A stretch of DNA of 64,000 nt from an uncultured Verrucomicrobia subdivision 3 bacterium (GTDB taxonomy: Bacteria; Verrucomicrobiota; Verrucomicrobiia; Limisphaerales; UBA11358). The notes beneath the pieces were generated by a model that was not told the origin of the DNA, did not search any database, and was given only the letters and a program-made list of their open reading frames with translations. Both the position numbers and the translations under genes were made by a program. Each line of letters begins with the position of its first letter. The first letter of the stretch is position 1. Location of the stretch: assembly GCA_903872345.1 (NCBI GenBank), contig CAIQKM010000157.1:10755-74754 (forward strand). The letters are read 5' to 3'. Of this stretch, positions 5,679 through 49,032 are shown in pieces.

Positions 5679-5689
5679 GGCAAATAAAA

Positions 5690-9931: not shown

Positions 9932-9937
9932 TCTCGC

Positions 9938-11914: not shown

Positions 11915-11918
11915 TTGT

Positions 11919-15412: not shown

Positions 15413-15430
15413 GCGGTCCCGGTGCGCCGG

Positions 15431-16129
15431 TCATTTGCGGCCGAGGTATTTCAACGTGGCCTCGGTGCGGGACTGGACGTGGAGTTTTTCGTAGATGATG
15501 CGCTGGTGATGTTTCACCGTGTTGAGGGCGATGCCGAGCTGATCGGCGATTTCCTTGTAGAGATAGCCGCGGGCGAGCAGGGCGAGAATCTCCTGTTCGC
15601 GCTGGGTGAGCATGGCGGTTTCGGACCGGGGCTCCTTGATTTCGTGAAAATAGGCGACGACCTTGCGGGCGATTTGCATGGACATGGGCGCGCCGCCGGA
15701 ATGGACTTCGTGAATCGCCTGGATCAGTTCTTCCGCCGGCATTTCTTTGAGCAAATAGCCGTTGGCGCCGGCGCGCAGGCAGTTGAAGATGAGGTCGGAT
15801 TCCTGGTAGGTGGTGAGAATCAGGACGCGCAGTTCGGGAATGACGGCCTTGAGTTTGGCGACACATTCAAAACCGCTCATGCCGGGGAGTTTGATGTCCA
15901 CGACGACGACGTCGGGCGACTGGCCGGGAACAATTCCCTGCACGGCCGCCTCGCCGGAGGCGTAGGCGTGGAGCAGGCGCAGGCGCGGTTCGCTGTTCAG
16001 CAGGGCGACGAGGCTTTGGCGCGTGCCGAGATTGTCTTCGACGATGGAGACGGAGATGGGCATCGGCCTAATGCTGTCCGCCGGCAAAATGGCAGGCAAG
16101 CAAATTGCGGGCGGAGCGGGCGGATTCAT
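15431..16129 (-). CDS. NarL/FixJ-family response regulator
   Basis: VSIVEDN, PDVVVVDIKLPGMSG, ILTTY and GYLLK, plus the LuxR HTH LTQREQEILALLARGYLYKEIADQLGIALNTVKHHQRIIYEKLHV. The start ATG overlaps the stop of the upstream kinase (ATGA at 16126..16129). An alternative start is MPISV at 16063. Confidence 0.9.
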   Translation of the reverse strand: MNPPAPPAICLPAILPADSIRPMPISVSIVEDNLGTRQSLVALLNSEPRLRLLHAYASGEAAVQGIVPGQSPDVVVVDIKLPGMSGFECVAKLKAVIPELRVLILTTYQESDLIFNCLRAGANGYLLKEMPAEELIQAIHEVHSGGAPMSMQIARKVVAYFHEIKEPRSETAMLTQREQEILALLARGYLYKEIADQLGIALNTVKHHQRIIYEKLHVQSRTEATLKYLGRK

Positions 16130-19100: not shown

Positions 19101-19164
19101 AGGGGCGGAGCAACCTGATTGCCCGGCCCCGGGGGAGCCGCCTTGTTTGTTGCAGGTTGGCCAT
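16126..19164 (-). CDS. Sensor histidine kinase with periplasmic beta-propeller repeats + Y_Y_Y domain, HisKA_3 + HATPase_c
   Basis: It has an N-terminal TM helix and many DG.LW[IV][GA]T blade repeats. The Y_Y_Y block is HCQYRLAGFDDNWVDAAPQRTANYSRLPPGIYSFQARA, followed by the TM helix WWFRTAMLILFTGGVIAIV. The H-box is RARIAKDIHDDLGGSL, and the ATPase boxes are EALNNVIVH and IEDNGHGF. I chose ATG 19164 (MANLQQ) because the ORF start at 19242 would overlap the GH2 gene by 74 nt. Confidence 0.88.
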   Translation of the reverse strand: MANLQQTRRLPRGRAIRLLRPWLWAGVYLFLAGSGQAALDTSDWLVRSWQSDDGLPNNNVTSIAQSADGYLWVATAGHVARFDGSHFQEFTSKSVLPNYSGYTARISTLLEDSRGGLWLAMVHGPVVRLTTGPAEIFTNGLPDYIVQEMVEDGEGAIWLAYHGGAVCRIRQGQVTRFREADGLPVRFDGTLARDRQGRIWFAKDGQIGRFQDGHFLTLAKSLVHSPRLTGAASGGVWVCTGQELLKCDDSGRLQSAGTCQLESPTTMLEDQAGAVWIGTAASGLYRFNGTGFASVHTSHSYISSLLSDREGGLWIGTGGGGVDRIQPRAFTLENDSTGLAFGTVQSVCEDAAHAIWAVTQNGVLACLTADGWHPVSTATNWPGGRAGCVTAGADGTVWIGTQSHALHRLRDGNYSTWRGTNGFPGHVVLGLLTDASNDLWIAEEDPNLVQCLHGGQFQNYPLPPGAGVARAFTADAANDIWIGTSKGLLFRIHNGGLTDETASLTHLNASIRCLAATPDGSLWIGYASWGLGRLKNGHFSRLTTAQGLYNGYLSEIIPDHYGWLWFGSDRGLFKVRQEELDDVADGRAGRVLSIKYGEGDALPSLQANFGVSPNVLRSHDDRLWFPTRTALVVVNLRNLRESLQPPPVLLKQVMVDDQILGSYGGIVPVPESVDLSRPPATLALPPGHHRIQFEFATLSFGTPGNIHCQYRLAGFDDNWVDAAPQRTANYSRLPPGIYSFQARARTGDGPWSEAHALELAVAPFFWQSWWFRTAMLILFTGGVIAIVRYVSFRRLHSRLHTLEQQAALDKERARIAKDIHDDLGGSLTQIKLLFELAQRQRTQPDAVTRLGQEGLAATRQIIKSLDEIVWAVNPRNDTLPHLIDYLGQFAIEFLARADIRCRVDLPDHPVAWAVSPEVRHNLFLAVKEALNNVIVHAEANEVWLRITATDRLLTIVIEDNGHGFDSPPDREFADGLPNMKQRLAEIGGQSAIESRAGAGTRVTLILAKPGNS

Positions 19165-19168
19165 GGCT

Positions 19169-22060: not shown

Positions 22061-22134
22061 ATAAGTGGATTTGCGTCAGTTTAGAAAGTTGGCGGTTGCT
22101 GGCCAGTATAATCAAACGCGGAGAAAGCGCGCCT

Positions 22135-22152
22135 GCCCGAACGGGCGATTGT
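22135..22152 (+). promoter_or_regulatory. 18-nt box gcccgaacgggcgattgt, copy 1 (candidate operator/promoter element)
   Basis: An exact 18-mer also occurs at 23360..23377. This copy lies in the divergent intergenic region between the GH2-kinase-regulator operon and the pseudopilin-like gene at 22270. Confidence 0.35.
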
Positions 22153-22269
22153 CAGTCCGGGTGCGGGATATATGATGAGTTCAAATCTCCACCCCAACCG
22201 GTCAGCGCGCAAAAGCCATTGGCTGCAATGATCCGGCGCCGGGTGGAACTGTCGCATACGAATGTTTCT

Positions 22270-23193
22270 ATGAATATCCGCCGCCATAATAATACCAAGG
22301 TTTCCGGGTTCACCCTCATCGAATTGCTGGTGGTGATCGCCATCATCGCGATCCTGGCCGCCATGCTGCTGCCCGCCCTGGCCTCGGCCAAGCGCAAGGC
22401 GACCATTACGACCTGCCTGAACAATCAGAAACAGCTCAGCCTGTCCTGGCGAATGTATGCGGACGACAATAACGACGGCCTCGTGGGGGCCAACTGCGAG
22501 GCGGGCACGGACTGGCGCATTTCCCCGGCGGGCAACGGTTTTTTGATGCCGACGATTCCGGCGGGAATACCCACGCCGTCGTCGTCCCGGCTCAATCAAT
22601 ATCTGGATGAGCAGGGTTTTCGCCAGGGCGGCTTATTCCGGTATTGCAACAATCCGGATCTGTTGCATTGCCCGGCGGACAACCGTTACCAGACCGGCAA
22701 CTTTGCCTTCGACAGCTATTCGATGGTCAACGGCCTGAATGGATCGGCGACGGCGAATACTTTTCCGCAGCCAACCCTGACCAAGGAGACGGCGATTCGC
22801 AGCCCGAGCGGCAAATTCATCTGGGTGGAAGAGAATGATCCGCGCCAGCAATCCGCCGGCTCCTATACGGTGTACGAAAACCAGAATTCCTGGACGCTGG
22901 GGATCACCGGCAGCACGTATCCGGGTAACTGGTCGAGCCTGACCTGGTATGACGGGCCGGCGGCGTATCATCAGACCAGCGCGACCTTCAGCTTTGTGGA
23001 CGGGCACGCGGAAAACCACCGGTGGCTGGACGCGGGCACCATCAAACTGGGCAACTCCATCAACAAACCGTCGGATTGCCAGAATACGGGGGTGACGAGC
23101 GGCTCGTTTGCGACGAGTCCGCATGATTTGCCCTGGGTGGCGGACGGCTATGCTTTCCCGGCTTTTGGCAACAATCCCGGAAACAATAATTAA
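22270..23193 (+). CDS. Prepilin-type N-terminal cleavage/methylation domain protein, H-X9-DG family
   Basis: The ATG at 22270 lies inside ORF 22096..23193. The N-terminus is [40 protein letters not shown] is an exact H-X9-DG. Confidence 0.9.
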
Positions 23194-23377: not shown

Positions 23378-23550
23378 TGGAAACCGTCAAACCAGTCAGG
23401 ATGGGTTATCCCAAAGAATATGACTGTCCCCATATTGCCAGCGTCATTGGCGTGGAAGCAGACGCTTTTCATGAGTGATGACGGTGTGTCAGGCGGCGGG
23501 CGGGCAATCGATCTTTGCACAAATCCCCAACAACCCAACGTCGAGATCCT

Positions 23551-26500
23551 ATGAGTAATGTCATGATAAAATCCCCAACCTGGGCGGTGCTGGCCGCCGG
23601 TCTGCTGGCTGCCCACCTGGCTTCGGCCCAGACGGAGAGCTGGAATGGCAGCGTCAATCAAAACTGGTCCACGGCCGGCAACTGGTCGGCGGTCGCGGTG
23701 CCCGGTTCGGCCACGAACGTGCTGTTCACCAACAGCGTGGGCTCGGCGGCGGCGGCCGGCGCCATTGACAACATCGTCAACAGCGGCTTTGGCGGCACCA
23801 TCGGGGCTTTGCAATATGCGAACACCAATACGAGCAACGGCGCCGGCTTCTATCACACCACGCAAATCGGCGCCGGCCAGACGCTGACGCTGACGGGCGG
23901 GCTGATAGCCGGCTCCCTGACGGACCTGGGCGGGAATGCGGTGGTCAACGCGGCCATTACCGGGGCCGGGGGCAAGCTGGTGATGAGCAACACCAGCAGC
24001 AATCTGGTGGCGAACCAGGGCAGTGGCACCAGCGGCGCCCATACCGGGATATTAAATCTGACGAATCTGGACGTATTCACCGCCACCATTGGCCGGATCA
24101 TCGTTGGCAACGCCTCCCTCGGGGTGGCGCGCGCCGAAGGGGCACTGTATCTGGCGAAGACGAACTTCATCACGCTGTCCGGCTCCGCCCCGCAAATCTA
24201 TGCGGGTTACAACAACGGCAATAACAATGGCAACAATACGTTCAGCTATATTTTTCTGGGCCAGTCAAATGTCCTTGCGGTCAACTCCATCACGATTGGC
24301 GCGGACAAGAACGCGGCGGTGATGGCGTTTAATCCGGCGATTACCAACGGCAACCCGGTGGCCGTGTTCCGCGGCGGCGGCGGCGGCACGAGCCGGGTGT
24401 CGTCCTGGACTCTGGGCAACAACTCGGCGCAGACCAGCACCGGCAGCACGAGCGTGGGGACGAATGATTTTTCGAACGGCTACCTGGATGCCATGGTGGA
24501 TTCGATGATTCTCGGGGAAAGCGAATCCGGCGCGAGCTCCGGTTCCGGGAGCGGCACGGGCATCTTCACCTTCACGGCCGGGACCAATAATGTGAACACC
24601 CTTTACGTGGGCTATCGGGTCGCCACCGGCGGCAACTGCGCGGGCATCGGCGCCATGAATGTGAACGGCACGGGCACGCTGATTGCGAACAATGCCATCT
24701 GCCTTTCATATTGGAATGGCGGCTCGGCCAACGCCTATGCCACCGGCAACTTGAACATCAATGGCGGCACGGTGCTGGCCAATACGATTACGAACGGGGT
24801 CACGGTGAGCGGAGCCAACAACACGGCCAACATCACCATCAATGGCGGCACGCTGGGCCTCACGAGCATTCTGGGCACGGCGGGCACGCTGGCGTCGCCC
24901 CTGTTGAATTTCAGCGCGGCCAATGCGGCCCTGCAATTGCAGGTGTCCGGAATCCAGACGAACATCGAGGCGGTGACGTTTAGTCCGTCCGGCCTGACCA
25001 ATCTAATCAATATCAGCTATCTGCCGCCCATCACCAGTTATCCGGTCACTTATCCGCTGATCGGCTTTCAAAACCTGGGGGGGACGCTCAATGTGGGGGT
25101 CAGCAACCTGCCGGCGGCGACGCCGGCGTATCAGGGGTATGTAACAAATGACGCCAACACGGTTTACCTGGTGCTGACCAGCGGGCCGACGCTCGGTTCG
25201 CAGGTGGACAAATGGACCGGCGCGGCGGGCGGCAACTGGGATGCGGTGACGGTCAACTGGAGCGCCTCCGGTTCGCCGGTGACCTATGCGAACGGCGCGC
25301 CGGTGCAGTTTGACGACACCGCCACGGGCGCCACGAACATCAATCTCACCACCACCCTGCTGCCGGCCAGCATCACGGCCAGCAACAGCGTGCTGCCTTA
25401 TATCCTGACCGGCACCGGCAAGATTTCCGGCGGCGCGGGCCTGACGAAGTATGGCAGTGGCACGCTGACGGTGGCGAACGCCGGGAACAATGATTTTGTC
25501 GGGAACATCACCATCAATGCCGGCGCAATCCAGTTTGGCAATGGCAGCACCAACGGGAATTTGCCGGTGACGGGAACGATCACCGACAACGGGAACCTGA
25601 TTTTCAACCACAGTAATAATACGCTCGTGCCTAACACTGTTACCGGCGGCGGCACGCTGACGCAAAATGGCAATGACGTGGTGACGCTCACGGCCTCCAA
25701 CAGTTTTAACGGCCTGGCGGTGGTGAACACGGGGATGCTGCTGGTGAACGGGGTGCTGTCGGGCGCGCTGACGAATGCGGCGGGCGCAACGGTCGGCGGC
25801 AATGGCACCAACGCGGGGGCGGCCAGCATCAGTGGCGTCATCCAGCCAAGCGCCGCCAGCGGCATGCCGGCGACATTCACGCTGGGCGGACTCGATCTGC
25901 TGGCCGGGGCGACCCCCCGGTTCATCCTGAATGGCACGGATAGCACGATGGGCAACGGAGTTAATGACCTGCTGCAGGTCAATGGGGATCTGGCGGCCAA
26001 CAATAACGCGGTGGCGCTCAACTTCATCGGCACCCCGCAGACAGGCGTGCCTTACACGCTAATCAATTACACCGGCAACCTGACCGGCAGTTTCGCAACG
26101 GCGGCGACGGGCACGCATTTCACAACGGCGGTGGACCAATCAACGCCCAATGAGATCAATGTGACCCTGAGCGGTTCGGGCGCAAACTTGAAATGGGATT
26201 CCAGCGTCAGCGCCACCTGGGATACCGGCATCAGCAGCAACTGGCTGAACGGCAGTTCGCCCGATGTGTTTTATGCCGGGGACAACGTGCTGTTGGACGA
26301 CACCGCCGGGGTGGTGACGAATATTACCATTGGGTCCGGCGTGGTGGTTTATCCAAATGTCATTACCGTGAGTTCGGCGGTCAATGATTTCAGCATAGGC
26401 GGCGGCCAGATCGGCGGGGCGGCCAGCATTCAGAAGAGCGGGGCCAGCGTCCTGGCACTGAACTCGGCGAACACGTTTACCGGGGGCGCCAATGTCACGG

Positions 26501-27972
26501 GAGGCACAGTGAGACTCGGCGCAAATGGCGCTTTGGGTACGGGACTGAGCTACTTTACCAACGGAGCGACGCTGGATTTGAACCTGCATTCCGCCAGCGG
26601 TTCCGTGGTGGTTTCCGGCGCGGGCGTGGGCGGTCAGGGCGTGATTATTAACAGCGCGGCGAGCGCCAATGGCGACCAGAATGCCTTCGGCAGCGGGGTG
26701 ACGGTTTATTTGCAGGCGGATGCAAAATTTGGTTCGGTGAACCGCTGGGACATCCGCAACGGCAGTCTGGCAAGCAATGACGGCAATCCCTGGAACCTGA
26801 CGGTGGCGGGGACAAACATGATCGCGCTGGTGAATGCCACGGTGGATGATCGCTTGGGGAATATTGACATTCAGAGCGGCACTTTTGCCATCCAGACGTC
26901 AACCCTGACGGATAGCTCATCCTGGGCGGGCAATGCCAACCACGTCATTACCGTGGAAACCAACGCCACGTTGGAGGTGGATTTCACCGGGTTTGTGGCC
27001 TTGGGGCAGACGCTGGTGTTCAATGACGGCTCGACCTTGCAAAATGACGGTTCCGCGTGCGTGCTGAACGGGCCGGTGACGTTGGCGGGCGGGAATGTGA
27101 ATGTTTTCAACACGGCGGCCACGACGGTCGAGCTGGATGGCGTGATCAGCGGTCCGGGTGGTTTCACCAAGAACAGCGCGGCTTCCATGACCTTGACGGC
27201 GGCGGACACGTACACGGGCGGCACTGCGGTCAATGCGGGCACGCTGTTTCTGACGGGTTCCGGGGCGATCACAGGCAGCACCAACATCACCATTGCCGCC
27301 GGGGCGACGGTGGATGTTTCGGCGCTGGCCACCCCGGCGATGACGCTGGGCGCGGGCCAGACTTTGCGCGGCAACGGGCTGTTGAACGGCAGCCTGGTCG
27401 TGGGGACGGGAGCAACGGTTGCGCCCGGCACCAATGCCGGTTCCATCGGTCTGCTCACGGTCACAAACAGTGTGACGCTGGGCGGCACAACCGTGATGAA
27501 GCTCAGTCATTTGCCCCTGACCAATGACGTGATCAGCGCGGCCAGCGTCACTTTCGGTGGCACGTTGAATCTGGTGGGCCTGACCGCCTTGCAGGCGGGT
27601 GACAGCTTCCAACTGTTCCCGGCGGGCGCCAGTTATTCGGGCGCGTTTGCCGCGATCGTTCCGGCCACGCCCGGTGCCGGCCTGCTCTGGAACACGAACA
27701 GTCTGGCCACCGGGATGTTGAGCGTGGTCAGCGGCGTGGTGCCGCAGCCGCACATCACCGGCATCAGCCTGACGGGCACCAGCCTGGTCATTAATGGCAC
27801 CAACGGGCTGGCGGGTGAATCCTACAATGTATTGACGACCACCAACCTGGCGCTGCCACTGGCAAACTGGACGGTGCTGCCGACCAACACGTTTACCGCC
27901 GGGAACTTCAGTCTTACCAACACGGTGAATCCCGGCGCGGCGCAAAGTTTCTACATTCTGCGCGTACCGTAA
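23551..27972 (+). CDS. Giant secreted autotransporter-associated beta-strand repeat (PATR) protein, no beta-barrel translocator, FYR-type C-terminal module
   Basis: The ATG at 23551 gives MSNVMIKSPTWAVLAAGLLAAHLASAQ. PATR units recur, for example LTKYGSGTLTVANAGNNDFVGNITINAGAIQFG, IQKSGASVLALNSANTFTGGANVTGGTVRLG and FTKNSAASMTLTAADTYTGGTAVNAGTLFLTG. The composition is G/T/N/A-rich and beta-helix-like. The tail is NPGAAQSFYILRVP. Confidence 0.9.
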   Translation: MSNVMIKSPTWAVLAAGLLAAHLASAQTESWNGSVNQNWSTAGNWSAVAVPGSATNVLFTNSVGSAAAAGAIDNIVNSGFGGTIGALQYANTNTSNGAGFYHTTQIGAGQTLTLTGGLIAGSLTDLGGNAVVNAAITGAGGKLVMSNTSSNLVANQGSGTSGAHTGILNLTNLDVFTATIGRIIVGNASLGVARAEGALYLAKTNFITLSGSAPQIYAGYNNGNNNGNNTFSYIFLGQSNVLAVNSITIGADKNAAVMAFNPAITNGNPVAVFRGGGGGTSRVSSWTLGNNSAQTSTGSTSVGTNDFSNGYLDAMVDSMILGESESGASSGSGSGTGIFTFTAGTNNVNTLYVGYRVATGGNCAGIGAMNVNGTGTLIANNAICLSYWNGGSANAYATGNLNINGGTVLANTITNGVTVSGANNTANITINGGTLGLTSILGTAGTLASPLLNFSAANAALQLQVSGIQTNIEAVTFSPSGLTNLINISYLPPITSYPVTYPLIGFQNLGGTLNVGVSNLPAATPAYQGYVTNDANTVYLVLTSGPTLGSQVDKWTGAAGGNWDAVTVNWSASGSPVTYANGAPVQFDDTATGATNINLTTTLLPASITASNSVLPYILTGTGKISGGAGLTKYGSGTLTVANAGNNDFVGNITINAGAIQFGNGSTNGNLPVTGTITDNGNLIFNHSNNTLVPNTVTGGGTLTQNGNDVVTLTASNSFNGLAVVNTGMLLVNGVLSGALTNAAGATVGGNGTNAGAASISGVIQPSAASGMPATFTLGGLDLLAGATPRFILNGTDSTMGNGVNDLLQVNGDLAANNNAVALNFIGTPQTGVPYTLINYTGNLTGSFATAATGTHFTTAVDQSTPNEINVTLSGSGANLKWDSSVSATWDTGISSNWLNGSSPDVFYAGDNVLLDDTAGVVTNITIGSGVVVYPNVITVSSAVNDFSIGGGQIGGAASIQKSGASVLALNSANTFTGGANVTGGTVRLGANGALGTGLSYFTNGATLDLNLHSASGSVVVSGAGVGGQGVIINSAASANGDQNAFGSGVTVYLQADAKFGSVNRWDIRNGSLASNDGNPWNLTVAGTNMIALVNATVDDRLGNIDIQSGTFAIQTSTLTDSSSWAGNANHVITVETNATLEVDFTGFVALGQTLVFNDGSTLQNDGSACVLNGPVTLAGGNVNVFNTAATTVELDGVISGPGGFTKNSAASMTLTAADTYTGGTAVNAGTLFLTGSGAITGSTNITIAAGATVDVSALATPAMTLGAGQTLRGNGLLNGSLVVGTGATVAPGTNAGSIGLLTVTNSVTLGGTTVMKLSHLPLTNDVISAASVTFGGTLNLVGLTALQAGDSFQLFPAGASYSGAFAAIVPATPGAGLLWNTNSLATGMLSVVSGVVPQPHITGISLTGTSLVINGTNGLAGESYNVLTTTNLALPLANWTVLPTNTFTAGNFSLTNTVNPGAAQSFYILRVP

Positions 27973-28146: not shown

Positions 28147-30849
28147 ATGAAAAAATTATTCATCAAAACGGGTATCACGGCCATGCTGGCGCTGTTCGCC
28201 GGCCTGGGCCTCAATGTCTGTCAGGCAACGATGACGGTGCAAAGTCTGAATGGCGCCGTAACGGCCACGGAAATCAGTTCGTTCGAGAGTTTCATGGCCG
28301 GCGAGGCGCCGCCGACCACCAACACCTACGACAACTCGCTGGCGGATGGCACCGCCGGGATGGAGGTGGAGTCATTGGGCATGATGTACGAGGTCACCAA
28401 TGACCCGGTGCTGCTGAACCAGATGATCCAGTATGCCGACCAGTTTCTGGCTTTGCGCAACGATACGAACACGGGGCGCGTGATGTGGACGGGCAACCGC
28501 GAGCCGGTCTGGCTGACCAAGCCAGCGGGAACGGAGGCGGGTTATGCGGGGTGTGAAAACAACGACATTGTCGGTCACATCGCCTATTGCGCCAAACTCA
28601 TTTTGGAAACGCCGGCGGTCTGGAATACCACGGTTCCGGACGGTAATCCGTTTGGCTATGGGACGACCTATTATGACCGCGCGGAAACCTATCTCACGCA
28701 GATGGAGGTGACGGAAAACAATTACATGCTGAAATGGTTCATCAATCCGACGAACAGCCAGATCATTGCGCCCACCAATGCCGCCTGGACCGCCTTTGGC
28801 GAGAGTGTCAACGCCTGGAACCGGCAGATGATGTTCATGAACGGCTTCCAGCGGATTTCGGAATGTCATCAACTGCTGGGCGACAACCCGGCCAAGGTGG
28901 CGCAATACGATGCGATTGTGCAGGCGGCGATGAACTGGTTTGTGAGCGGACTGACGCCCTATACGACGAACGGGTATCCGGTGTATAACTGGGATTATGC
29001 GCCCGGGAGCGGCGGCAGCGAGGATCTGAGCCTGCATGCGGATTATGACATGTGGGGCGTGAACCGCGCCTATCTGAGCGGCCGTTATACGAACTTGCCG
29101 GCGTCCACCATGATTCCGTTTGCGAACACGCTCCAGTATGTGATTTATCAGGGCAACAACACCTTTGCCGACTGGGTCTCGGGCGATGCCTCCAGCACCC
29201 GCAACTATATTTATCCGGCGTGGACCCTGGTCGGGAATTTCAATCCCAAGACCTATTACACCACTTCGAGCGCCAACATTGCGCACGGATCGCAGGGCAA
29301 CACGGCCATATATGACGCGTTCATTCTCTGGGTCAAAAATGCCCGCTACCTGGGCTCGTTTGCGAACAACACGAATTCGGCGGACTACACGGTGCTCGCG
29401 CCGTGGCAGCAGGTTCTTTATGCCGGGAGCAGCACCAATTGCAAAGTAACGGTGAGTCCTTTGGATGGGTTCAGCAGCAGCGTGACGTTGGGGACGGGCG
29501 GGCTGCCTTCAGGCGTGACGGCGAGCTTCAGCCCGGCGTCCGTTAGCGGCGGTTCGGGCACTTCCACGCTGACCCTGTCCGCATCCGGTTCGACGGCGAG
29601 CGGCATTTATTCGCTCGGTTCCGTGACCATCACCGGCAGCGGCGGTTCGATAGCGCGCACGTCGCCGCTGACGCTGATCGTGCCGGCGACGCCCGGTTTC
29701 TCGATTTCGGCCGCGCCCGCCTCGCAAAACATCACGATTGGCGGCAGCACCAGTTATACGGTGACGGTGGGCAGCCTCAATGGATTTGGCGGCACGGTGG
29801 CGTTGAGCGTGAGCGGATTGCCCGCACATGCCGGCGGCAGTTTTAGTCCCGCCTCCATCACGGGCGGTGCCGGTTCCTCCACCCTGAATATCACCACGGC
29901 CACGAATACGCCGAACGGCACTTCCACCCTGACCATTACCGGCGTCAGCGGCACCCTGACCAACACGGCCACGGTGAGCCTGGTGCTCAATGATTTCACC
30001 ATCTCCGCCGCGCCCGCCGCGCAGACGGTCACCGCCGGCGGCGGCACGAATTTCACCGTGACGGTGGGCAACATCAATGGCTTCGCCGGCACGGTCAATC
30101 TGAGCGCGGGCGGATTGCCGGCCGGGGCGACGGCCAGTTTTAATCCGACTTCGATCACGAGTTTGGGCAACTCGACCCTGACGATCACGACCACCAATAC
30201 GATGGCCGCCAGCACCAATGCGCTCACCATCACCGGGATCAGCGGCACGCTCCAGCATAGTGCCGGGGTGAGTTTGGTCATCAATGCGGCGGTTCCCAGC
30301 CTGCCGTCCGGGTGGTCGGATTCGGATATTGGTGCGGTCGGGTTGGCGGGCGGCGCTTCATACAGCAGCGGCGTGTTTACCGTTCAGGGGAGCGGGGCGG
30401 ATATTTATGGAACGAACGATGAATTCAACTTCTGCCGGGAACTGGCGACGAATAATTTCACCGTCACCGCCCGGGTGGCCAGCCAGAGCAGCGCGAATGC
30501 GTGGTCCAAATCCGGCGTGATGATTCGCGGGGTGAACACCACCAATTCAGCTTACATCGGGGTCTATATCACGCCCGGCAACGGCGTGGACATGCAATGC
30601 CGCACAGTCAACGGGGCGGCGGCCGTGGACATGGCCCGGGTGGGCGGCGTAGCGGCACCGTATTGGGTGCGGCTGGTGCGTTCCGGGAGCACGTTCACCG
30701 GGTATTGCTCGCCGGACGGGAGCACGTGGACGACGGTCAGTTCCACGAACATCTCCATGGCCGCGAGCGTGCGCGTGGGACTGCCGGTGTGTTCCCATGA
30801 CAATACGCAGCTCAACACCTCCACCTTTGACAATGTGACGGTTCAATAG
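28147..30849 (+). CDS. Secreted protein: unknown ~420 aa N-terminal domain + 3 Ig-like repeats + C-terminal ConA-like (DUF1349-like) domain
   Basis: Signal peptide MKKLFIKTGITAMLALFAGLGLNVCQA. The N-terminal domain is paralogous to 30933..32726. Three ~95 aa repeats (29419..30284) follow the pattern V.V..LNGF.G.V.L...GLP.G....F.P.S.T. The C-terminal 150 aa (SGWSDSDIGAVGLAGGASYSSGVFTVQGSGADIYG...WSKSGVMIR...YWVRLVRSGSTFTGYCSPDGSTW) resembles the ConA-like domain common at the ends of bacterial glycosidases. Confidence 0.85.
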   Translation: MKKLFIKTGITAMLALFAGLGLNVCQATMTVQSLNGAVTATEISSFESFMAGEAPPTTNTYDNSLADGTAGMEVESLGMMYEVTNDPVLLNQMIQYADQFLALRNDTNTGRVMWTGNREPVWLTKPAGTEAGYAGCENNDIVGHIAYCAKLILETPAVWNTTVPDGNPFGYGTTYYDRAETYLTQMEVTENNYMLKWFINPTNSQIIAPTNAAWTAFGESVNAWNRQMMFMNGFQRISECHQLLGDNPAKVAQYDAIVQAAMNWFVSGLTPYTTNGYPVYNWDYAPGSGGSEDLSLHADYDMWGVNRAYLSGRYTNLPASTMIPFANTLQYVIYQGNNTFADWVSGDASSTRNYIYPAWTLVGNFNPKTYYTTSSANIAHGSQGNTAIYDAFILWVKNARYLGSFANNTNSADYTVLAPWQQVLYAGSSTNCKVTVSPLDGFSSSVTLGTGGLPSGVTASFSPASVSGGSGTSTLTLSASGSTASGIYSLGSVTITGSGGSIARTSPLTLIVPATPGFSISAAPASQNITIGGSTSYTVTVGSLNGFGGTVALSVSGLPAHAGGSFSPASITGGAGSSTLNITTATNTPNGTSTLTITGVSGTLTNTATVSLVLNDFTISAAPAAQTVTAGGGTNFTVTVGNINGFAGTVNLSAGGLPAGATASFNPTSITSLGNSTLTITTTNTMAASTNALTITGISGTLQHSAGVSLVINAAVPSLPSGWSDSDIGAVGLAGGASYSSGVFTVQGSGADIYGTNDEFNFCRELATNNFTVTARVASQSSANAWSKSGVMIRGVNTTNSAYIGVYITPGNGVDMQCRTVNGAAAVDMARVGGVAAPYWVRLVRSGSTFTGYCSPDGSTWTTVSSTNISMAASVRVGLPVCSHDNTQLNTSTFDNVTVQ

Positions 30850-30875
30850 CATTAACCATGCGGGTGTTTACCAAC

Positions 30876-30903
30876 AGCCGGGGCGCGGTCACGCGCCCCG
30901 GCT
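30876..30903 (+). other. Perfect 12 bp GC hairpin between the two paralogs (attenuator/terminator candidate)
   Basis: agccggggcgcg (30876..30887) pairs with cgcgccccggct (30892..30903), with the loop gtca. A third segment, gcgccccggcc (30914..30924), could pair with the left arm instead. Confidence 0.35.
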
Positions 30904-30932
30904 TGATGTTGAAGCGCCCCGGCCAGTTGAAC

Positions 30933-32726
30933 ATGCCTGTAATGAGAATTTTTTTGCGTTTAACCGGTGGCTGCCTGCTATTTGGGTTGCTGCTGGCAAC
31001 CGGGCGGGCGGGCATGACCTTGCAAAGCCTTTACGGCGCGGTGACGGCTACGGAAACGGCTTCCTTTAAAACTTTCATGGCCGGGGAAACGCCGCCGGCG
31101 GGCCAGACCTATGACAACACCATCGCCGATGGCACCGCCGGGATGGAGGCGGAGGCGCTGGGGCTGATGTACGAGGTCACAAATGATTCCGCCGGTCTGA
31201 GCCAGATGATCCAGTATGCCGACCGCTTTTTGGCTTTGCGCAATGACACCAACACGGGCACGGTCATGTGGGACGGCAAGCGCGAGCCGGTCTGGCTCAC
31301 CAAGCCGCCGACCAACAGCGACGGCAGCGTGAACAGTCAGGCCGGCTATGCCGGGTGCGAGAATAATGGCATTGTCGGGCACATCGCCTATTGTGCGAAA
31401 CTGATTTTGGAAAGTCCCTGGCTTTGGAATGCCACCGTTCCCGGCGGCGATCCTTACACCAACGGGCCGACGTATATTCAACGGGCGGAGACGTACATCA
31501 CCCAGATGGACCGGGTGCAGGATGCCTACATGCTGAAATGGTTTATCAATACGAATAACTATCAGATTACTGCGCCGACCAATGCGGCGTGGACGGCGGA
31601 GGGGCAAAGTGTGACGGCTTACAACCGGCAGATGATGTTTCTCAACGGATTCCAGCGGCTGTCCGAGTGTCATCAACTGCTGGGGGACAGTCCGACGCGG
31701 GTGGCCGAATATGATGCCATTGTAATAGCCGTGATGAACGGTTTTATCGCCTCGCTGCAGCCGTACGCGACGAACGGCGTTTCGGTTTACAACTGGACGT
31801 ACGCGCCGGGCAGCGGCGGGAGCGAGGATAATACGCTGCATTCCACGTATGACCTGTGGGGCGTTACGCGGGCCTGGGCCAGCGGACGTTATGGCCTGGG
31901 CCATGCCGCGCTGGTTCCGTTTGCGAATACGCTCCAGTACGTGATGAATGTCGCGACCAACCACATCTCCTACTACGTCAACGGCACCAGCAGTCCGAAC
32001 AGCGCGCGCAATTTCATCTATCCGGGCTGGCTGCCGGTGGCGAATTTCGGAGCGTCCACCTATGCCATCATGGCAAATATGAACATTGCGCAAGGTTCGC
32101 CGGCCAGCACGGCCATTTTTGACGCCTTAAATCTCTGGGTGAAAAACGCCCGGTTCACGGGCGTTTACCCGACCAATAATACGTCGCCGGACTTCACGGT
32201 TTCAACGCCGTGGGGGCAGACGGTTTATGCGGGCGGAAGCGTTACCGGCATGGTGACCTTGAATGGGTTGAACGGCTTTGCGGGAACGGTCACGCTGGGA
32301 GCGGGTCATTTGCCGGCGGGTGTGACGGCCGGTTTTAATCCGGCGGTCATCACCAACGGGACGGGCGCATCCGTGCTTACGCTCACGGCGGCCACATCGG
32401 CGGCGGGCGGGATTTTTGCACTGACCAACGGCGTGACAATTTTGGGAACCAATGGCGTGGGCGTCCGCAGCGCGCCCGTTGCCCTGGCGGTCATCCCGCC
32501 GCCGGCCATCCGCAAGGCGCTGCGGAACGGAACGAATTACACCTTCACCGGCACCAACGGGATTCCGGGGCGGACTTGCGTGGTGCTGATGTCCACGAAT
32601 CCGGCGCTGCCCCGGACCGGCTGGACGCCGCTCGCGACGAACACCTTTGACGTCACCGGCAAATTTCTGTTCACCAACTCCGCCGGGTCGGGTTTGCGCC
32701 AGTTTTACCGGCTGCAAGCGCCGTGA
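30933..32726 (+). CDS. Secreted protein: paralog of the unknown N-terminal domain of 28147..30849 + 1 Ig-like repeat + FYR-type C-terminal module
   Basis: ATG 30933 (or 30942) gives MPVMRIFLRLTGGCLLFGLLLATGRAG. Long collinear identity with 28147..30849 includes GAVTATE..SF..FMAGE.PP...TYDN..ADGTAGME.E.LG.MYEVTND, MIQYAD.FLALRNDTNTG.VMW.G.REPVWLTKP, AGYAGCENN.IVGHIAYCAKLILE and RQMMF.NGFQR.SECHQLLGD. The tail is GLRQFYRLQAP. Confidence 0.85.
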   Translation: MPVMRIFLRLTGGCLLFGLLLATGRAGMTLQSLYGAVTATETASFKTFMAGETPPAGQTYDNTIADGTAGMEAEALGLMYEVTNDSAGLSQMIQYADRFLALRNDTNTGTVMWDGKREPVWLTKPPTNSDGSVNSQAGYAGCENNGIVGHIAYCAKLILESPWLWNATVPGGDPYTNGPTYIQRAETYITQMDRVQDAYMLKWFINTNNYQITAPTNAAWTAEGQSVTAYNRQMMFLNGFQRLSECHQLLGDSPTRVAEYDAIVIAVMNGFIASLQPYATNGVSVYNWTYAPGSGGSEDNTLHSTYDLWGVTRAWASGRYGLGHAALVPFANTLQYVMNVATNHISYYVNGTSSPNSARNFIYPGWLPVANFGASTYAIMANMNIAQGSPASTAIFDALNLWVKNARFTGVYPTNNTSPDFTVSTPWGQTVYAGGSVTGMVTLNGLNGFAGTVTLGAGHLPAGVTAGFNPAVITNGTGASVLTLTAATSAAGGIFALTNGVTILGTNGVGVRSAPVALAVIPPPAIRKALRNGTNYTFTGTNGIPGRTCVVLMSTNPALPRTGWTPLATNTFDVTGKFLFTNSAGSGLRQFYRLQAP

Positions 32727-33893
32727 CTATTTTTCCGCCAACTGCTGTTCCAGCCAGGGGCCGACGGCAGCGGCCCATAACTGGCCGTGACGTTGCAATC
32801 CCCGGGCGTTGAAATGAATGCCCCGGCCGTTGTTCTGGCGGAATTCGGGGCCGAGCTGGTCGGTGGCGGGGCCGGCCAGGGCCAGACCATCCGTGACGAG
32901 CGATTTTTGGGCGGCGCAGAGTTCGGGGGTGCTTTGGTCATCCGGCGTATGATAGCTCACCTGGGCGACGAACCACGGGACGCGCCAACCGGCGGCGGTG
33001 CGCGAGGATTCGATGACACGTTGGAGATACCGGCGGTATTGGGCAGGCGTGATTTCGCGGTCCGGCGGCTGGCGGGAATCGGATTCGCCCTGATGCCAGA
33101 GCAGGGCGCGGAAGCCGCCGGGGCCGAAGAATTTTTCGGCGGTGACAATTTTATCGAACAAGGTGCCGGTGCAGACCCACTGGTTGGAGCCGGTGGTGAC
33201 GGTGTTCATGCCCGTGGTGGGCGGAGCGGCCATGGCGTCGCCGGCGGGCAGCCATTCGCGCACGCTGGTGGAACCGACCCCCAAGGCGACGAGCCCGACG
33301 GGCACCTGAAAGCGGGCGGCCATGGCATCCCCAAAAGCGGGCATAAAACTGCCGCCTTTGCCGCTGGCGCCAGGCTCGGGATCACGGGCGGGCTGCCAGT
33401 GGCCATCCAGAATGCTGTAAGCGACGACGAGCGGACTTTGGGCCGACTGTTTTTCTTCGCCGTGATTGGCGGAATTGGACTGGCCGGCGACCAGAAAAAT
33501 TTCACCAATGCCGACATGTTCCACGGTGTCGGTCCAAGCCACGAGACCCGGGCCGGCGAGGCGGATTTCGAGCCGGTACCAGCCGCCGGCCGGGGTGGGC
33601 AGTTCACCGCGAAAGCGCCGGACCCGGTTATCAAAGGGCAGGGGAACCCAGTTGTTAGTGGCGGTATCACTGATGAGCCGCGCTTCGAGCCGGTCGAGAT
33701 TGGTCAAGGCGGCGTGGCCTTGCACCTCGAGTTGGCCGGCGATAAGGATGGCGCCGGCGGCCTTGGTCTGCCGTTGAAACACCTGGTAATCGAGCGGGGA
33801 GGACAGGGTGATCTTGAGCGCGTCAGCGGAATCGGACTGCGCGCCGGCAGTGACCAGCAAGGAGCCAAGGAACAGGATCAACAGGGCTTTCAT
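32727..33893 (-). CDS. SGNH/sialate-O-acetylesterase-like carbohydrate esterase (DUF303-like)
   Basis: This is the 3' 388 codons of the 985-aa ORF track entry. ATG 33893 gives the signal peptide MKALLILFLGSLLVTAGAQS. EIFLVAGQSNSANHGE (GQSN block) and ALLWHQGESD match the SASA/DUF303 pattern. Confidence 0.85.
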   Translation of the reverse strand: MKALLILFLGSLLVTAGAQSDSADALKITLSSPLDYQVFQRQTKAAGAILIAGQLEVQGHAALTNLDRLEARLISDTATNNWVPLPFDNRVRRFRGELPTPAGGWYRLEIRLAGPGLVAWTDTVEHVGIGEIFLVAGQSNSANHGEEKQSAQSPLVVAYSILDGHWQPARDPEPGASGKGGSFMPAFGDAMAARFQVPVGLVALGVGSTSVREWLPAGDAMAAPPTTGMNTVTTGSNQWVCTGTLFDKIVTAEKFFGPGGFRALLWHQGESDSRQPPDREITPAQYRRYLQRVIESSRTAAGWRVPWFVAQVSYHTPDDQSTPELCAAQKSLVTDGLALAGPATDQLGPEFRQNNGRGIHFNARGLQRHGQLWAAAVGPWLEQQLAEK

Positions 33894-34034
33894 GGACGGA
33901 AGTCTAGCGGCGGGCGGCCAAGATTGCCATCGCCCGATTTCGCGTTTGACATTAATTCCAAAAATTTCCGGAAAACGTGCGCCGGTTTTTTTCCGTGGTT
34001 GAATGGGGGGATGAGCTGTGGCACTAATGAAGGA

Positions 34035-37000
34035 ATGCCATTTTTGCCGTCCCTCATCCGCCGGGTTTGCCTCTGGGCCCGGGTGCTGCTGCTGCTGGCG
34101 GCAGCCGGCGGGCGGCTGGCGGCGGACACTGCTCAGGATTACATGGTCAAGATCTGGAGCGTGGATGACGGCCTGCCGGAAAGCAGCATCAGCGACGTGA
34201 TCCAATCCCGGGACGGTTACCTCTGGGTGAGCACTCTGAACAGCGGACTGGCGCGTTTTGACGGGGTGCGGTTTGTGAATTTTGATGTGCCGTTTGCCTC
34301 GCAGTTTACGAGCGGCGGGGTGCGTCGTTTGTTTGCGGCGGAGGACGGGACGCTCTGGATCAATGGCTTTGGCAATTACGTGGCCAGCCTCCGGGGCGGA
34401 TCGTTTCAACTGGAAAACACGCAGCCGTCGGTTTTCAACTGGCTGGTCTGGCAAAAGGCCGGGCAGGTGGTGTTTGCCACGAAGGAGGGGCAGTTGCTCG
34501 CCGGCACGCCGACGGCCGGGACGAATTACACCTGGCACACCATGCTGGCGCCCGGCGCGGGTGAAAACGCCCGTTTTTTTGCGGATGCTGGGGGCGGTTT
34601 TTGGTATCGCCGGGCGGATGGACAGTTGGCGCGGATAACGGGGACCGAAGCCGGTGTGATGCCGCTGCCCGCCGGGGGTGCCGGCATTATGGCGCTGACC
34701 GGCGACAATCAGCAACGGATCGCGGTGGCCAGTGCCAACGGCCTGTTCGTCTGGTCGGGCGACAAATTTCAAGAGGCGACGCCGATCAATGGTGAACCAG
34801 GTTTCACGGCCCATGGGATCGTATCCGACGGCCGGGGCGGCTGGTGGGTGGAAGTGAACAATCGGCTGCGGCGCTGCCATGACCGTCAGTGGATTGCGGA
34901 GGCAACCGACTGGCGCAAACAGCGGCGCACGTGGTCCAAAGTCCGCTGGGAGCAGCCGGACGCCAATGGCGGGCTGTGGCGGGCTTATACGGATGGCGGG
35001 GTGGTTCACGTGGACCCGGCGGGCAAACTTTCGGCGCTGACCGCCGATGACGGGCTGCCCAGCAACCGGGTGCGGACGTTGACCCAGGATCGGGATGGCA
35101 ATGTCTGGGCGAGTTTTGAACGGGGCGGGGTGGTGCGCATCCGGCCGCGGTTGTTCCAGTCGGTTGGACGGGCGGAAGGGCTGGCGGATTCGGTGACCAC
35201 TTCGGTTTGCGAGGATGCGCGGGGGGCGGTGTGGATTGGCACGTTGAGCGGGGCGGTCAGTTGCTGGAATCAGGGCGTGTGCCGCAATTTCACGCTGCCG
35301 CTGGAGGGCACGCATTGCGAAATGTCCACGGTGTTTCCCGATTCCGGGGGCCGGATCTGGGTTGGCACGCATGGCAACGGCTTGCTGGTCTATGAGGATG
35401 GCCAGTTCCGGCATGTGCTCTCGCTTGGCCAGGTGGGGGTGAACATCCGGGGGATTTTTGTGAGTCGTGACGGCCGGGTCTGGATTGCGAGCCAGGACGG
35501 ATTGTATTGTCTGGCGAACGGCGAAGTGCGGCGGGTGCAGACCCCGCGATCGGAGGCGGATTACCCCGTGGCGCTGGCGGAAGGCGCGGACGGAGTGATC
35601 TGGGTGGCGCTGAACACGGGAGTGCTGATGAAATATGCCGGCGGGCAGATCACCGCCTATCAGCCGGAGGAGGCCGCCCTGCACAGCCGGTTTTCCGCCG
35701 TGTGTGTGGATTCACCGGGCACGGTTTGGGTGGGGACGCTGGGGGCGGGGCTGCTGCGGTTTCAAGCCGGTCATTTTACGGCCATCACCAAACGGGACGG
35801 GTTGCCAACCGACAACATTTCCCAGGTGATCGACGATGCGGCGGGCGGATTATGGCTGGGATCGCCCGCCGGGATCATTGCCGTGCGCAAAGAATTTTTA
35901 AATGGCCGGGATGGAAATGCGGTGGGTCGTGTTTTTGGGCGGGATGACGGTTTGCCCACGGTGGGGTGCGCCACGGCATCACAACCAACCGTCTGGCGGG
36001 GCCGGGAGGGAAGGCTGTGGTTTGCAACCGCCAACGGCCTGACCAGTGTGCAGCCGGGAAATACCCAAACGAGACAGAGTCCCCCGGCGGTGTTGCTGGA
36101 GGAAGTGCGGATCGACGGGCAGCCGGCCGGGGCGGTCGCCGAGGGGAAACCGCTGCCGGCCGGGGCAACGCTCCGGTTGAGCCCGGGCCGCCACCAGCTT
36201 GAATTCCGTTACACCGGATTAAGTTTCACCGCCCCCGAGCGAATCCGGTTCAAGTATATGCTGGAGGGGTTGGATGGCGTCTGGGTGGATAACCAGTCTG
36301 ACCGGACCGTGAGTTATCATGACGTGCCGCCGGGCGAATACCGTTTCCGGGTGAATGCCTGCAACAGTGATGGCCACTGGTCGGCGGCGGAGGCCACCGT
36401 GGCGTTGGTGCTGCCGCCCCATGTCTGGGAAACGGCTTGGTTCCGGCTGACGGCCCTGGCGGCGAGCCTGCTGCTGGTGGCGGGTTCGGTGTTCTGGATC
36501 TCGCAGTTGCGCCACCGCCGGCAACTGCTGGTCTTGCGGCAGCAGCAGGCGCTGGAACGCGAGCGCACGCGGATTGCCCAGGATATTCATGATGATCTCG
36601 GGGCGAGCCTGACGCGCATCACGATGCTGAGCCAGTCGGCGTTGAACAAACCGGAGTCCGCCGCGCCGGCCGGCGAAGTGAAACGCATTTATGCGACGGC
36701 CCGGGCCATGACCAACGCGATGGATGAGATCGTCTGGGCGATCAATCCGCGGCATGATTCGATTGAAAGCGTGGCGGCCTATTTTGCCGATTTCACGGAG
36801 GAGTTTCTGAGTCCTGCGGGATTGCGGTTCCGGATTGATATTCCGCTGCAGTTGCCGGCGTGGTCCATCAATGCGGAAGTGCGGCACAACCTCTTCCTCG
36901 CCTTCAAGGAAGCCATGAACAATGTGGTCAAACATGCGCAGGCCAGCGAGGTGGCCGTGGTTTTGGAAGTGCGGCCGAACGGGTTTGTGCTGTCGGTGAG

Positions 37001-37184
37001 CGACAATGGCCGGGGTTTTGCAGCGCCGGCGCCGGCGCCACCGGGGTCGGCGGCGGTCGCGGCCCGGGGCAACGGGTTGAACAACATGCGCCGCCGGCTG
37101 GAAGAGCTCGGCGGTCGCTGTGTCATTGCCAGCGTTCCCGGCCAGGGCACGCAGGTGCGGTTTGAAATGGATGTGCGCGCATGA
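34035..37184 (+). CDS. Sensor histidine kinase with periplasmic beta-propeller repeats + Y_Y_Y domain, HisKA_3 + HATPase_c
   Basis: The real gene is the 3' part of ORF 32787..37184. ATG 34035 (MPFLPSLIRRVCLWARVLLLLAAAGG) or 34011 is the start. It has propeller blades (DGYLWVST, DGTLWING, GAVWIGT, GRIWVGT, ...). The Y_Y_Y block is FKYMLEGLDGVWVDNQSDRTVSYHDVPPGEYRFRVNA, followed by the TM helix WFRLTALAASLLLVAGSVFWI. The H-box is RTRIAQDIHDDLGASL, then the ATPase boxes. Confidence 0.88.
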   Translation: MPFLPSLIRRVCLWARVLLLLAAAGGRLAADTAQDYMVKIWSVDDGLPESSISDVIQSRDGYLWVSTLNSGLARFDGVRFVNFDVPFASQFTSGGVRRLFAAEDGTLWINGFGNYVASLRGGSFQLENTQPSVFNWLVWQKAGQVVFATKEGQLLAGTPTAGTNYTWHTMLAPGAGENARFFADAGGGFWYRRADGQLARITGTEAGVMPLPAGGAGIMALTGDNQQRIAVASANGLFVWSGDKFQEATPINGEPGFTAHGIVSDGRGGWWVEVNNRLRRCHDRQWIAEATDWRKQRRTWSKVRWEQPDANGGLWRAYTDGGVVHVDPAGKLSALTADDGLPSNRVRTLTQDRDGNVWASFERGGVVRIRPRLFQSVGRAEGLADSVTTSVCEDARGAVWIGTLSGAVSCWNQGVCRNFTLPLEGTHCEMSTVFPDSGGRIWVGTHGNGLLVYEDGQFRHVLSLGQVGVNIRGIFVSRDGRVWIASQDGLYCLANGEVRRVQTPRSEADYPVALAEGADGVIWVALNTGVLMKYAGGQITAYQPEEAALHSRFSAVCVDSPGTVWVGTLGAGLLRFQAGHFTAITKRDGLPTDNISQVIDDAAGGLWLGSPAGIIAVRKEFLNGRDGNAVGRVFGRDDGLPTVGCATASQPTVWRGREGRLWFATANGLTSVQPGNTQTRQSPPAVLLEEVRIDGQPAGAVAEGKPLPAGATLRLSPGRHQLEFRYTGLSFTAPERIRFKYMLEGLDGVWVDNQSDRTVSYHDVPPGEYRFRVNACNSDGHWSAAEATVALVLPPHVWETAWFRLTALAASLLLVAGSVFWISQLRHRRQLLVLRQQQALERERTRIAQDIHDDLGASLTRITMLSQSALNKPESAAPAGEVKRIYATARAMTNAMDEIVWAINPRHDSIESVAAYFADFTEEFLSPAGLRFRIDIPLQLPAWSINAEVRHNLFLAFKEAMNNVVKHAQASEVAVVLEVRPNGFVLSVSDNGRGFAAPAPAPPGSAAVAARGNGLNNMRRRLEELGGRCVIASVPGQGTQVRFEMDVRA

Positions 37185-37903
37185 AAAAAACACCGTCAAA
37201 ATCGTCGGCCGTGTCCCCTGAAGGGGGGACAGGCCAGCCGGCCGCCGCTTCAACTACAGTAACGCCGATGGGAATCAATGTTTCCGTGGTTGAAGACGAT
37301 GCCGAAGCGCAGGAGATGCTGGCGGAGTGGCTGAATTCCACCCCGGGTTTTCGGTGTGTGAGCCGGCATGGCGACGGCATTGCGGCCGTGGCGGAACTGC
37401 CGGGCGTGCAGCCGGAGGTGGTGTTGATGGACATCAATCTGCCCGGATTGAAAGGGATTGAATGCGTGCGCCAGCTCAAGCCGAAGATGCCGCAGACACA
37501 ATTCCTGATGCTGACGGTTTACAGCGACACCAACTCCATTTTTCAGGCGCTGGAGGCCGGGGCGGTCGGTTATCTGCTCAAGCGCACGTCGCGGGATGAA
37601 CTGTTTGCCGCGCTGCGATTGGTGCAGGCGGGCGGTTCGCCGATCAGCAGCGGCATCGCCCGGTTGGTGGCCCAGGCCTTTCAGACGCCTCAGCCGGCGG
37701 CGGCCGAAAACGAGGCCCTGTCCGAACGCGAACGGCAGGTGCTGGACCTGCTCTCCCATGGCCATCCGGAAAAGCAGATTGCGGACCGTCTAAAAATCAG
37801 TCCGCATACGGTGCATACCTACATCCGGCGCATCTACGAGAAACTGCACGTTCATTCCCACGCGCAAGCCGTGGCGAAATACGCCGGGCAGACGCAATCC
37901 TGA
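37181..37903 (+). CDS. NarL/FixJ-family response regulator
   Basis: The start overlaps the kinase stop (ATGA at 37181..37184). VSVVEDD, PEVVLMDINLPGLKG, MLTVY and GYLLK are present, plus the HTH LSERERQVLDLLSHGHPEKQIADRLKISPHTVHTYIRRIYEKLHV. There is a ~30 aa N-terminal extension; an alternative start is MGINV. Confidence 0.9.
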   Translation: MKKTPSKSSAVSPEGGTGQPAAASTTVTPMGINVSVVEDDAEAQEMLAEWLNSTPGFRCVSRHGDGIAAVAELPGVQPEVVLMDINLPGLKGIECVRQLKPKMPQTQFLMLTVYSDTNSIFQALEAGAVGYLLKRTSRDELFAALRLVQAGGSPISSGIARLVAQAFQTPQPAAAENEALSERERQVLDLLSHGHPEKQIADRLKISPHTVHTYIRRIYEKLHVHSHAQAVAKYAGQTQS

Positions 37904-38773: not shown

Positions 38774-38826
38774 TGATTTTTTCAACATTTCCTCAGTTCA
38801 ATCCGCAATTCAACCCACAACCCATT

Positions 38827-44310: not shown

Positions 44311-44338
44311 AGGGTGCGGGAACCGGCCATTTGAATTT

Positions 44339-48966: not shown

Positions 48967-49032
48967 TTATGGCATAGTCTGCGCTCGACTTGGGCGGGAC
49001 GCCGCCTTTAACCTGTGCCGCAACGTTTGATC

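Follow-up and report, generated by a model that had tools for sequence, protein, structure and literature searches.

Our favored reading of two adjacent open reading frames (ORFs), held with moderate confidence, is that they encode secreted enzymes that cleave glycans and belong to a six-hairpin family not yet described. The two, ORF A (28147..30849, 900 amino acids (aa)) and ORF B (30933..32726, 597 aa), lie on the forward strand of a 64,000-nucleotide stretch of DNA from an uncultured Verrucomicrobia subdivision 3 bacterium, hereafter the window. They are tandem paralogues that share an N-terminal domain followed by differing modules. Catalysis itself we infer from the predicted fold of this domain, from the carbohydrate-binding modules (CBMs) fused to its relatives and from a glycan-degradation context. 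These observations support an earlier note on this DNA, made from the sequence alone, in reading the domain as a glycoside hydrolase (GH) or polysaccharide lyase (PL) rather than as a structural protein.

Paralogy and predicted fold of the shared domain

Residues 26-516 of A aligned by BLASTP with residues 25-524 of B at 304 identities in 501 positions (61%; 607 bits, E = 0), a likeness over about 500 aa that is far beyond chance. The common N-terminal domain described in the earlier note was thus recovered, and the conserved blocks it had quoted for both copies were all found in the translations. Its length of about 420 aa holds when signal peptide and linker are counted, while the toroid proper, described below, measures about 385 aa (A residues 27-411). 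Both proteins carry predicted Sec-type signal peptides at their N-termini. In A this comprises residues 1-26 (MKKLFIKTGITAMLALFAGLGLNVCQA, 28147..28224, + strand), as judged from the hydrophobic N-terminus in the translation and from homology to B that begins at residue 26; in B it comprises residues 1-25 (MPVMRIFLRLTGGCLLFGLLLATGRA, 30933..31007, + strand), as judged from the translation, from the position of a hairpin upstream and from homology to A that begins at residue 25.

The shared domain was compared with Pfam-A (2025 copy), NCBIfam release 20 (2026) and the sequences and structures of the PDB up to 2026. Residues 1-430 of A and B had no Pfam-A match at E<=1, and the only NCBIfam match at this threshold was to LanL (E 0.098, 10.9 bits against a cutoff of 650). 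A single-sequence search with the domain matched no PDB chain. Profiles of the family gave insignificant matches of about 40 residues to PDB chains (E 0.05-0.5), located on the first helical hairpin with its motif G..lEalg.mYe.tgD...Ld; the chains were the GH76 4c1s (E 0.054), a 'six-hairpin glycosidase' (6ex6) and the YteR-like GH105 4wu0 (E 0.18-0.5). A profile search of a 5.8-billion-protein set returned no more distant relatives and none with a Pfam toroid domain. Among 48 long family members, the shared domain was not covered by any of the 25 most often matched Pfam families. Relatives were unnamed or called 'hypothetical protein' among the 120 matches listed per protein search (RefSeq, GenBank), and the RefSeq annotation pipeline PGAP likewise calls the member from Streptomyces sp. 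KR80 'hypothetical protein'. Judged against Pfam, NCBIfam, the PDB and the names in the source databases, the family therefore appears to be undescribed, in agreement with the earlier note, which could not place the domain in any family.

An AlphaFold2 model of the shared domain, computed from a 62-sequence alignment of the family, was all-helical and had a mean predicted local distance difference test (pLDDT) of 93.3 and a predicted template modelling score (pTM) of 0.92. It comprised 11 long helices, with short turns alternating with long loops, and the last helix ended at residue 403. Forty-nine of the best 50 Foldseek matches in the PDB were (alpha/alpha)6 carbohydrate enzymes, including GH8, GH116, GH76, GH105, GH52, GH125, cellobiose and glucose 2-epimerases and the PL35 enzyme GAGase II; the exception was 7tem, an uncharacterised exported protein. 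Nearly all of the best 50 had a probability of about 1.0, with template modelling (TM) scores of 0.36-0.53 and identities of 8-13%. The highest TM score was to the GH8 enzyme 5xd0 (0.50/0.53), and no match was better than E ~1e-3. On the strength of this model we are confident in assigning the shared domain, at superfamily level, to the (alpha/alpha)6 toroid or 'six-hairpin' fold, as the earlier note had guessed when it proposed an alpha/alpha toroid. Because all of the matches were weak, the fold is known while the family is not; the structural neighbors were almost all GHs, PLs or sugar epimerases, none of them close, and there was no confident match to a non-enzymatic fold or to a well-characterised family. 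The predicted toroid, our candidate catalytic domain, corresponds to residues 27-411 of A (28225..29379, + strand) and, in B, to the paralogous residues 26-412 (31008..32168, + strand), which align throughout with the family.

Conservation, domain partners and proposed activity

An exhaustive search with a hidden Markov model (HMM) against 1.84 billion representative proteins found 967 members at E<=1e-3, 508 at E<=1e-10 and 268 at E<=1e-30, where the 967 are clusters at 50% identity. A scan of genomes, made with 18 closer sequences, placed most matches in Verrucomicrobiota, with others in Lentisphaerae, Planctomycetota, Myxococcota, Actinomycetota (Streptomyces sp. KR80) and Bacteroidota (Flaviaesturariibacter flavus). 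Conservation was measured over 141 non-redundant full-length domains (<70% identity, mean identity ~35%) and is given in ORF A numbering. Thirteen residues were at least 95% conserved (T39, E42, R104, N105, W122, T174, Y175, R178, N225, W282, Y284, E292 and H297), with E292 reaching 99%, and a further six were conserved at 88-91% (D98, D106, W114, E137, Y254 and D301). Cysteines were variable: at position 136 the commonest residue was Ser (27%), and C148 was retained in 47%.

In (alpha/alpha)6 enzymes the active-site funnel is formed by the face on which the long loops lie and the inner helices begin. From the order of the helices in the model, R104, N105, D106, W114, W122, E137, N225, W282, Y284, E292, H297 and D301 would fall on the long loops that lead from an outer helix to the next inner one or at the start of an inner helix. 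T39, E42, T174, Y175, R178 and Y254 would map to the face of the short turns, where they probably make up a structural network. We propose a funnel on one face of the toroid, built from these long loops and the starts of the inner helices. W114, W122, W282 and Y284 would line its walls and stack on sugar rings, R104, N105, N225 and H297 would position the substrate, and two carboxylates among E292, E137, D301 and D106 would act as general acid and base. Since most (alpha/alpha)6 glycosidases invert, an inverting hydrolase would be the likeliest form of such an enzyme. The Ig-like repeats downstream of the domain would then serve as spacers, the DUF1349 ConA-like domain of A as a glycan-binding or targeting module, and the FYR tail of B would help to sort the protein or retain it at the surface. 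Expression of A and B would probably be governed, as part of a regulon, by the Reg_prop/Y_Y_Y histidine kinase and the LuxR regulator encoded next to them. Together with exo-glycosidases (GH2, GH29) and SASA esterases, A and B may act on a complex heteroglycan, probably one that contains galactose and is acetylated.

The modules fused to the shared domain were surveyed with Pfam in the 48 long family members, and the 25 commonest partner families were taken. A CBM32-type F5/8C domain was the most frequent (22 of 48), followed by DUF1349 (10), CHB_HEX_C_1 (9), Fn3_assoc (8), fn3 (6) and a T9SS sorting tail (5); further partners were CBM6, CBM35, ricin-B (CBM13), CBM_X2 and Big domains. No other catalytic domain was present among these 25 families, the partners being carbohydrate-binding or spacer modules, which leaves the toroid as the sole candidate catalytic module in architectures typical of extracellular carbohydrate-active enzymes.

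Gene context at other loci also points to glycan catabolism, as judged from Pfam assignments. In close relatives, at loci L003, L004 and L005, genes for a LuxR regulator and a Reg_prop kinase come after a B-type orthologue. At two of these, both on contigs from Verrucomicrobiota, a PL7-like Alginate_lyase2 gene (226-228 aa, E ~1e-10) stands directly upstream of the orthologue (L003, 2502-3179; L004, 9212-9895), and L004 encodes in addition, two genes upstream of the orthologue, a GH8-CBM32-CHB_HEX_C-DUF1349 protein (6167-9199). These PL7-like and GH8 neighbors hint at an acidic polysaccharide as the substrate at L003 and L004. Elsewhere a B-type gene is flanked by SASA and GH106 (L002), and the neighbors of more distant members include GH2 (L019, L020 and L022), two GH29 genes (L020) and GH51 (L024). 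A pooled Pfam scan of 102 neighboring genes from 23 loci showed no dominant conserved partner, so synteny does not point to any one substrate.

GH8, the nearest known system by TM score, belongs to clan GH-M and comprises inverting endoglucanases, chitosanases and a reducing-end xylose-releasing exo-oligoxylanase. It has the alpha/alpha toroid in common with the shared domain (4q2b, 1wu4 and 2dro matched in addition to 5xd0), and both have conserved carboxylates close to the N-termini of alternate helices. The GH8 protein at L004 also has the same accessory set (CBM32, CHB_HEX_C and DUF1349). However, A and B had no Pfam GH8 match, identity in the structural alignments was 11-13%, and a TM score of about 0.5 denotes likeness at fold level. 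In a comparison by hhalign, the family profile matched the L004 GH8 domain with a probability of 0.4%, although a single-sequence target makes this a weak test. The same fold class is found in the alpha-mannan-active GH76 and GH125 and in the unsaturated glycuronyl hydrolases GH88 and GH105, the latter including YteR-like enzymes (6shm, 6u4z, 4v1s, 2p0v and 4xuv). The first hairpin motif resembles those of GH76 and GH105 in 4c1s and 4wu0, over the same 40 or so residues and without significance, and a GH125 gene lies in the window. None of these four families matched A or B in Pfam, and hhalign gave the family profile a probability of 0.1% against the GH125 of the window, again a weak test with a single-sequence target.

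Evidence for and against catalysis

Several observations weigh against a glycan-cleaving enzyme of the kind we propose. Likeness to each solved enzyme is at the level of fold only, with TM scores of about 0.5 or lower and E-values of ~1e-3 or weaker. The model has 11 helices and not 12, and the toroid may be incomplete compared with a classical (alpha/alpha)6 fold. The picture of the conserved residues gathered in one pocket depends on helix order. Toroid polysaccharide lyases use Tyr, His, Asn and Arg, and all four residue types are also found in the conserved set; in addition, two orthologues adjoin the PL7-like gene. Actinobacterial members adjoin subtilases and not glycosidases; these S8 neighbors are 1100-1166 aa long (L011, 11230-14730; L015, 6624-9923). 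Across 27 loci, finally, the neighborhoods were heterogeneous and had no single conserved partner.

Two of these points bear on the possibility that the shared domain is a polysaccharide lyase which cleaves a uronic-acid-containing glycan by beta-elimination, a reading we regard as unlikely. Y284 and H297 would then form the catalytic pair and N225, N105, R104 or R178 would neutralise the carboxylate, as in PL5, PL8, PL15, PL17, PL21 and PL35, lyases whose catalytic domain is likewise a helical toroid. All of these Tyr, His, Asn and Arg residues, and Y175, are among those conserved at 95% or more in the family. Foldseek listed the glycosaminoglycan lyase PL35 8khv (TM 0.43), the PL17 7bjt (TM 0.28) and BACCELL_00875, the PL7-like gene at L003 and L004 is immediately upstream of the B-type orthologue, and modules such as the CBM35 and CBM32 fused in this family are also found on lyases. 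Set against this, the Pfam lyase models Lyase_8, Hepar_II_III and Alginate_lyase did not match A or B, and the structural matches to lyases were weaker than those to GH8, GH116 and GH76. PL8, PL15, PL17 and PL21 combine their toroid with a C-terminal beta-sheet domain; no such domain is predicted here. The unsaturated-uronate genes GH88 and GH105 were absent from the window and from the 25 commonest neighbor families, and the recurring neighbors GH2, GH29, GH92, GH125 and GH20 act on neutral or amino sugars. The near-invariance of E292, with three further carboxylates conserved at about 90%, also fits acid/base hydrolysis.

It is rather improbable that the domain simply belongs to a recently added CAZy family for which there is neither a Pfam or NCBIfam model nor a solved structure. 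Several CAZy families are added every year, some of them through biochemistry alone. The lack of any match in Pfam-A, NCBIfam and the sequences and structures of the PDB argues against this explanation, as do the 'hypothetical' and missing names of the Streptomyces member and of the listed relatives; we also found no family matching the shared domain in the full-text literature, in a text search that is blind to sequence identity.

We likewise give little credence to a role other than depolymerisation, whether as a glycan-binding or scaffold module, as an epimerase or isomerase of the N-acylglucosamine 2-epimerase (AGE) type or as a LanC-like or other small-molecule enzyme. Cellobiose and glucose 2-epimerases were among the better Foldseek matches (3wkf, E 3.9e-3, TM 0.45), and the AGE superfamily, which comprises N-acylglucosamine, cellobiose and glucose 2-epimerases, has in common with the domain the (alpha/alpha)6 fold (Foldseek E 4e-3 to 2e-2, TM 0.39-0.45) and conserved histidines. 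The faint NCBIfam match was to the LanC-like part of LanL, and the subtilase neighbors in Actinomycetota and the variable gene context would also fit a function of this kind. AGE enzymes, however, are single-domain cytoplasmic proteins, and LanC proteins are cytoplasmic as well, whereas members of our family are secreted and carry fused CBMs; no GlcNAc_2-epim Pfam match was found. Secretion, fusion to several kinds of CBM and the lack of another catalytic domain among the commonest partners are the architecture of an extracellular depolymerase, and about 12 invariant polar residues at a mean identity of ~35% are more than simple binding needs. A LanC-like cyclase in particular was rejected, since the proteins are secreted and the cysteines that would be its zinc ligands are not conserved, so that there is no LanC-type zinc site.

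We therefore retain the glycan-cleaving enzyme as the favored explanation. A more specific proposal, to which we give slightly less than an even chance, is that the shared domain defines a GH or PL family new to CAZy, of six-hairpin fold and with a specificity outside the existing families. Its members might, for example, be endo-acting enzymes for heteroglycans that are rich in galactose, acetylated or fucosylated, among them microbial exopolysaccharide, arabinogalactan-type glycans or complex N-glycans, and be widespread in soil and freshwater Verrucomicrobiota, where a lineage-specific FYR sorting domain would deliver them. The fold and the modular, secreted type of carbohydrate-active enzyme (CAZyme) are already known; what appears to be new is the family. 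In soil, peat, fresh water and the gut, complex glycans are degraded in large part by Verrucomicrobiota, Planctomycetota and Lentisphaerae, and many secreted proteins of their glycan-utilisation loci lack annotation. About 1,000 clusters at 50% identity are here invisible to Pfam, NCBIfam and PGAP, yet they combine a confidently predicted enzyme-type fold with CBM fusions, which makes the family a concrete target for the discovery of new CAZymes. Once an activity is assigned, the annotation of many metagenomes would improve, and glycan analysis or biomass processing could gain a new specificity. The advance would be incremental and not paradigm-changing, since GH and PL families of this fold are regularly added.

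Accessory modules and gene neighborhood

Downstream of the shared domain the two proteins diverge as the earlier note had described, with three Ig-like repeats and a ConA-like domain in A and one Ig-like repeat and a FYR tail in B (BLASTP and Pfam). The repeats of A (29380..30288, + strand) are in tandem at approximately residues 412-514, 515-615 and 616-714 and were delimited by BLASTP with the repeat of B. The latter was most similar to A residues 616-712 (50% identity, E 1e-16), aligned at a lower level to residues 515-614, and aligned to residues 412-514 inside the main alignment. A ends in the ConA-like domain DUF1349 and a stop codon (30289..30849, + strand); the domain (PF07081, residues 765-899) scored above the Pfam cutoff (34.4 against 32.4 bits, E 2.2e-8) and covered profile positions 44-176 of 179. 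An AlphaFold2 model of B residues 413-597 (pLDDT 91.8) showed two tandem Ig-like beta-sandwiches, and Foldseek matched the model to Ig-like domains. The first sandwich (model residues 8-109) is the Ig-like repeat, at approximately residues 413-522 (32169..32498, + strand), and the strands at model residues 113-183 belong to the FYR tail, at approximately residues 523-597, which ends in RQFYRLQAP and a stop codon (32499..32726, + strand). The tail, about 75 aa long, is thus predicted to be a small Ig-like beta-sandwich.

The FYR tail closes six secreted proteins in the window (5380-5622, 27730-27972, 32499-32726, 40543-40785, 44068-44310 and 54166-54408), with the consensus GTNG..G..Y.VL.STNL..P...W..L.TNTF..G.F..TN...PG..Q.FYRL..P. 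It had no Pfam or NCBIfam match and may be a signal, specific to the lineage, for sorting or for anchorage at the surface. Of the homologues of B with 560-620 aa in other Verrucomicrobiota, nearly all carry the tail as well, and the B-type architecture is thus the common form in the clade. ORF A looks like a derivative in which the tail was exchanged for two extra Ig repeats and DUF1349.

The longest ORF that contains B opens at 30858. We take the ATG at 30933 as its likely start because the signal peptide opens there and because a GC-rich hairpin fills the spacer between A and B. This hairpin, CCGGGGCGCG-GTCA-CGCGCCCCGG (30878..30901, + strand), has a perfect 10-bp stem and lies between the stop codon of A and the likely start of B, and the spacer (30850-30935) folds at -45.6 kcal/mol (RNAfold). 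An intrinsic terminator was rejected, as the stem, although strong, is not followed by a T-run and the terminator scan made no call. The hairpin could function in processing, stability or attenuation.

From the Pfam assignments of its genes, the window is a glycan-degradation island. GH125, GH29, a SASA esterase, GH92 and GH20 are encoded at 6433-15412, a GH2 glycosidase of 963 aa, the type most often recurring beside relatives of A and B, at 19169..22060 (- strand), and another GH92 at 45853..48417; together they form an exo-glycosidase cluster typical of complex N-glycan or mannan breakdown. Of the two Reg_prop/Y_Y_Y kinases in the window, one lies at 16126..19242 (- strand) and the other beyond B. 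Directly downstream of B, and convergent with it, is a secreted SASA-type carbohydrate esterase of 388 aa (32727..33893, - strand), identified by PF03629, a signal peptide and a GQSN motif; its extent is supported by the gene call on the identical contig and by an internal Met that opens the signal peptide. A Reg_prop/Y_Y_Y/HisKA_3 sensor histidine kinase with a signal or transmembrane segment follows at about 34011 (or 34035)..37184 (+ strand), and a LuxR-type response regulator (Response_reg, GerE) at 37181..37903 (+ strand). A longer forward-strand ORF at 32787..37184 (1465 aa) was rejected as a single gene: its 5' third overlaps the minus-strand esterase, the kinase starts at about 34011, and the over-extension is an artefact of high GC content. 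Long ORFs without a Pfam match were found at 44153-46057, 48967-50166 (- strand) and 15422-16513; in that at 48967-50166 a low third-position GC (0.57) suggests that it is not a real gene.

Upstream of A are a pseudopilin gene (N_methyl, 22096..23193, + strand) and a gene for a PATR protein of 1485 aa with a FYR-type C-terminal tail (23515..27972, + strand), both identified by Pfam. The earlier note had counted the position of A directly after this pair as an argument for an enzyme, to which we attach little weight because the pair recurs several times in the window irrespective of its neighbors. The window contains four pseudopilin-like genes with an N-terminal methylation motif (5543-6553, 22096-23193, 38021-38773 and 54501-55304), three of which adjoin large secreted PATR-repeat proteins (23515-27972, 38770-40785 and 50184-54408).

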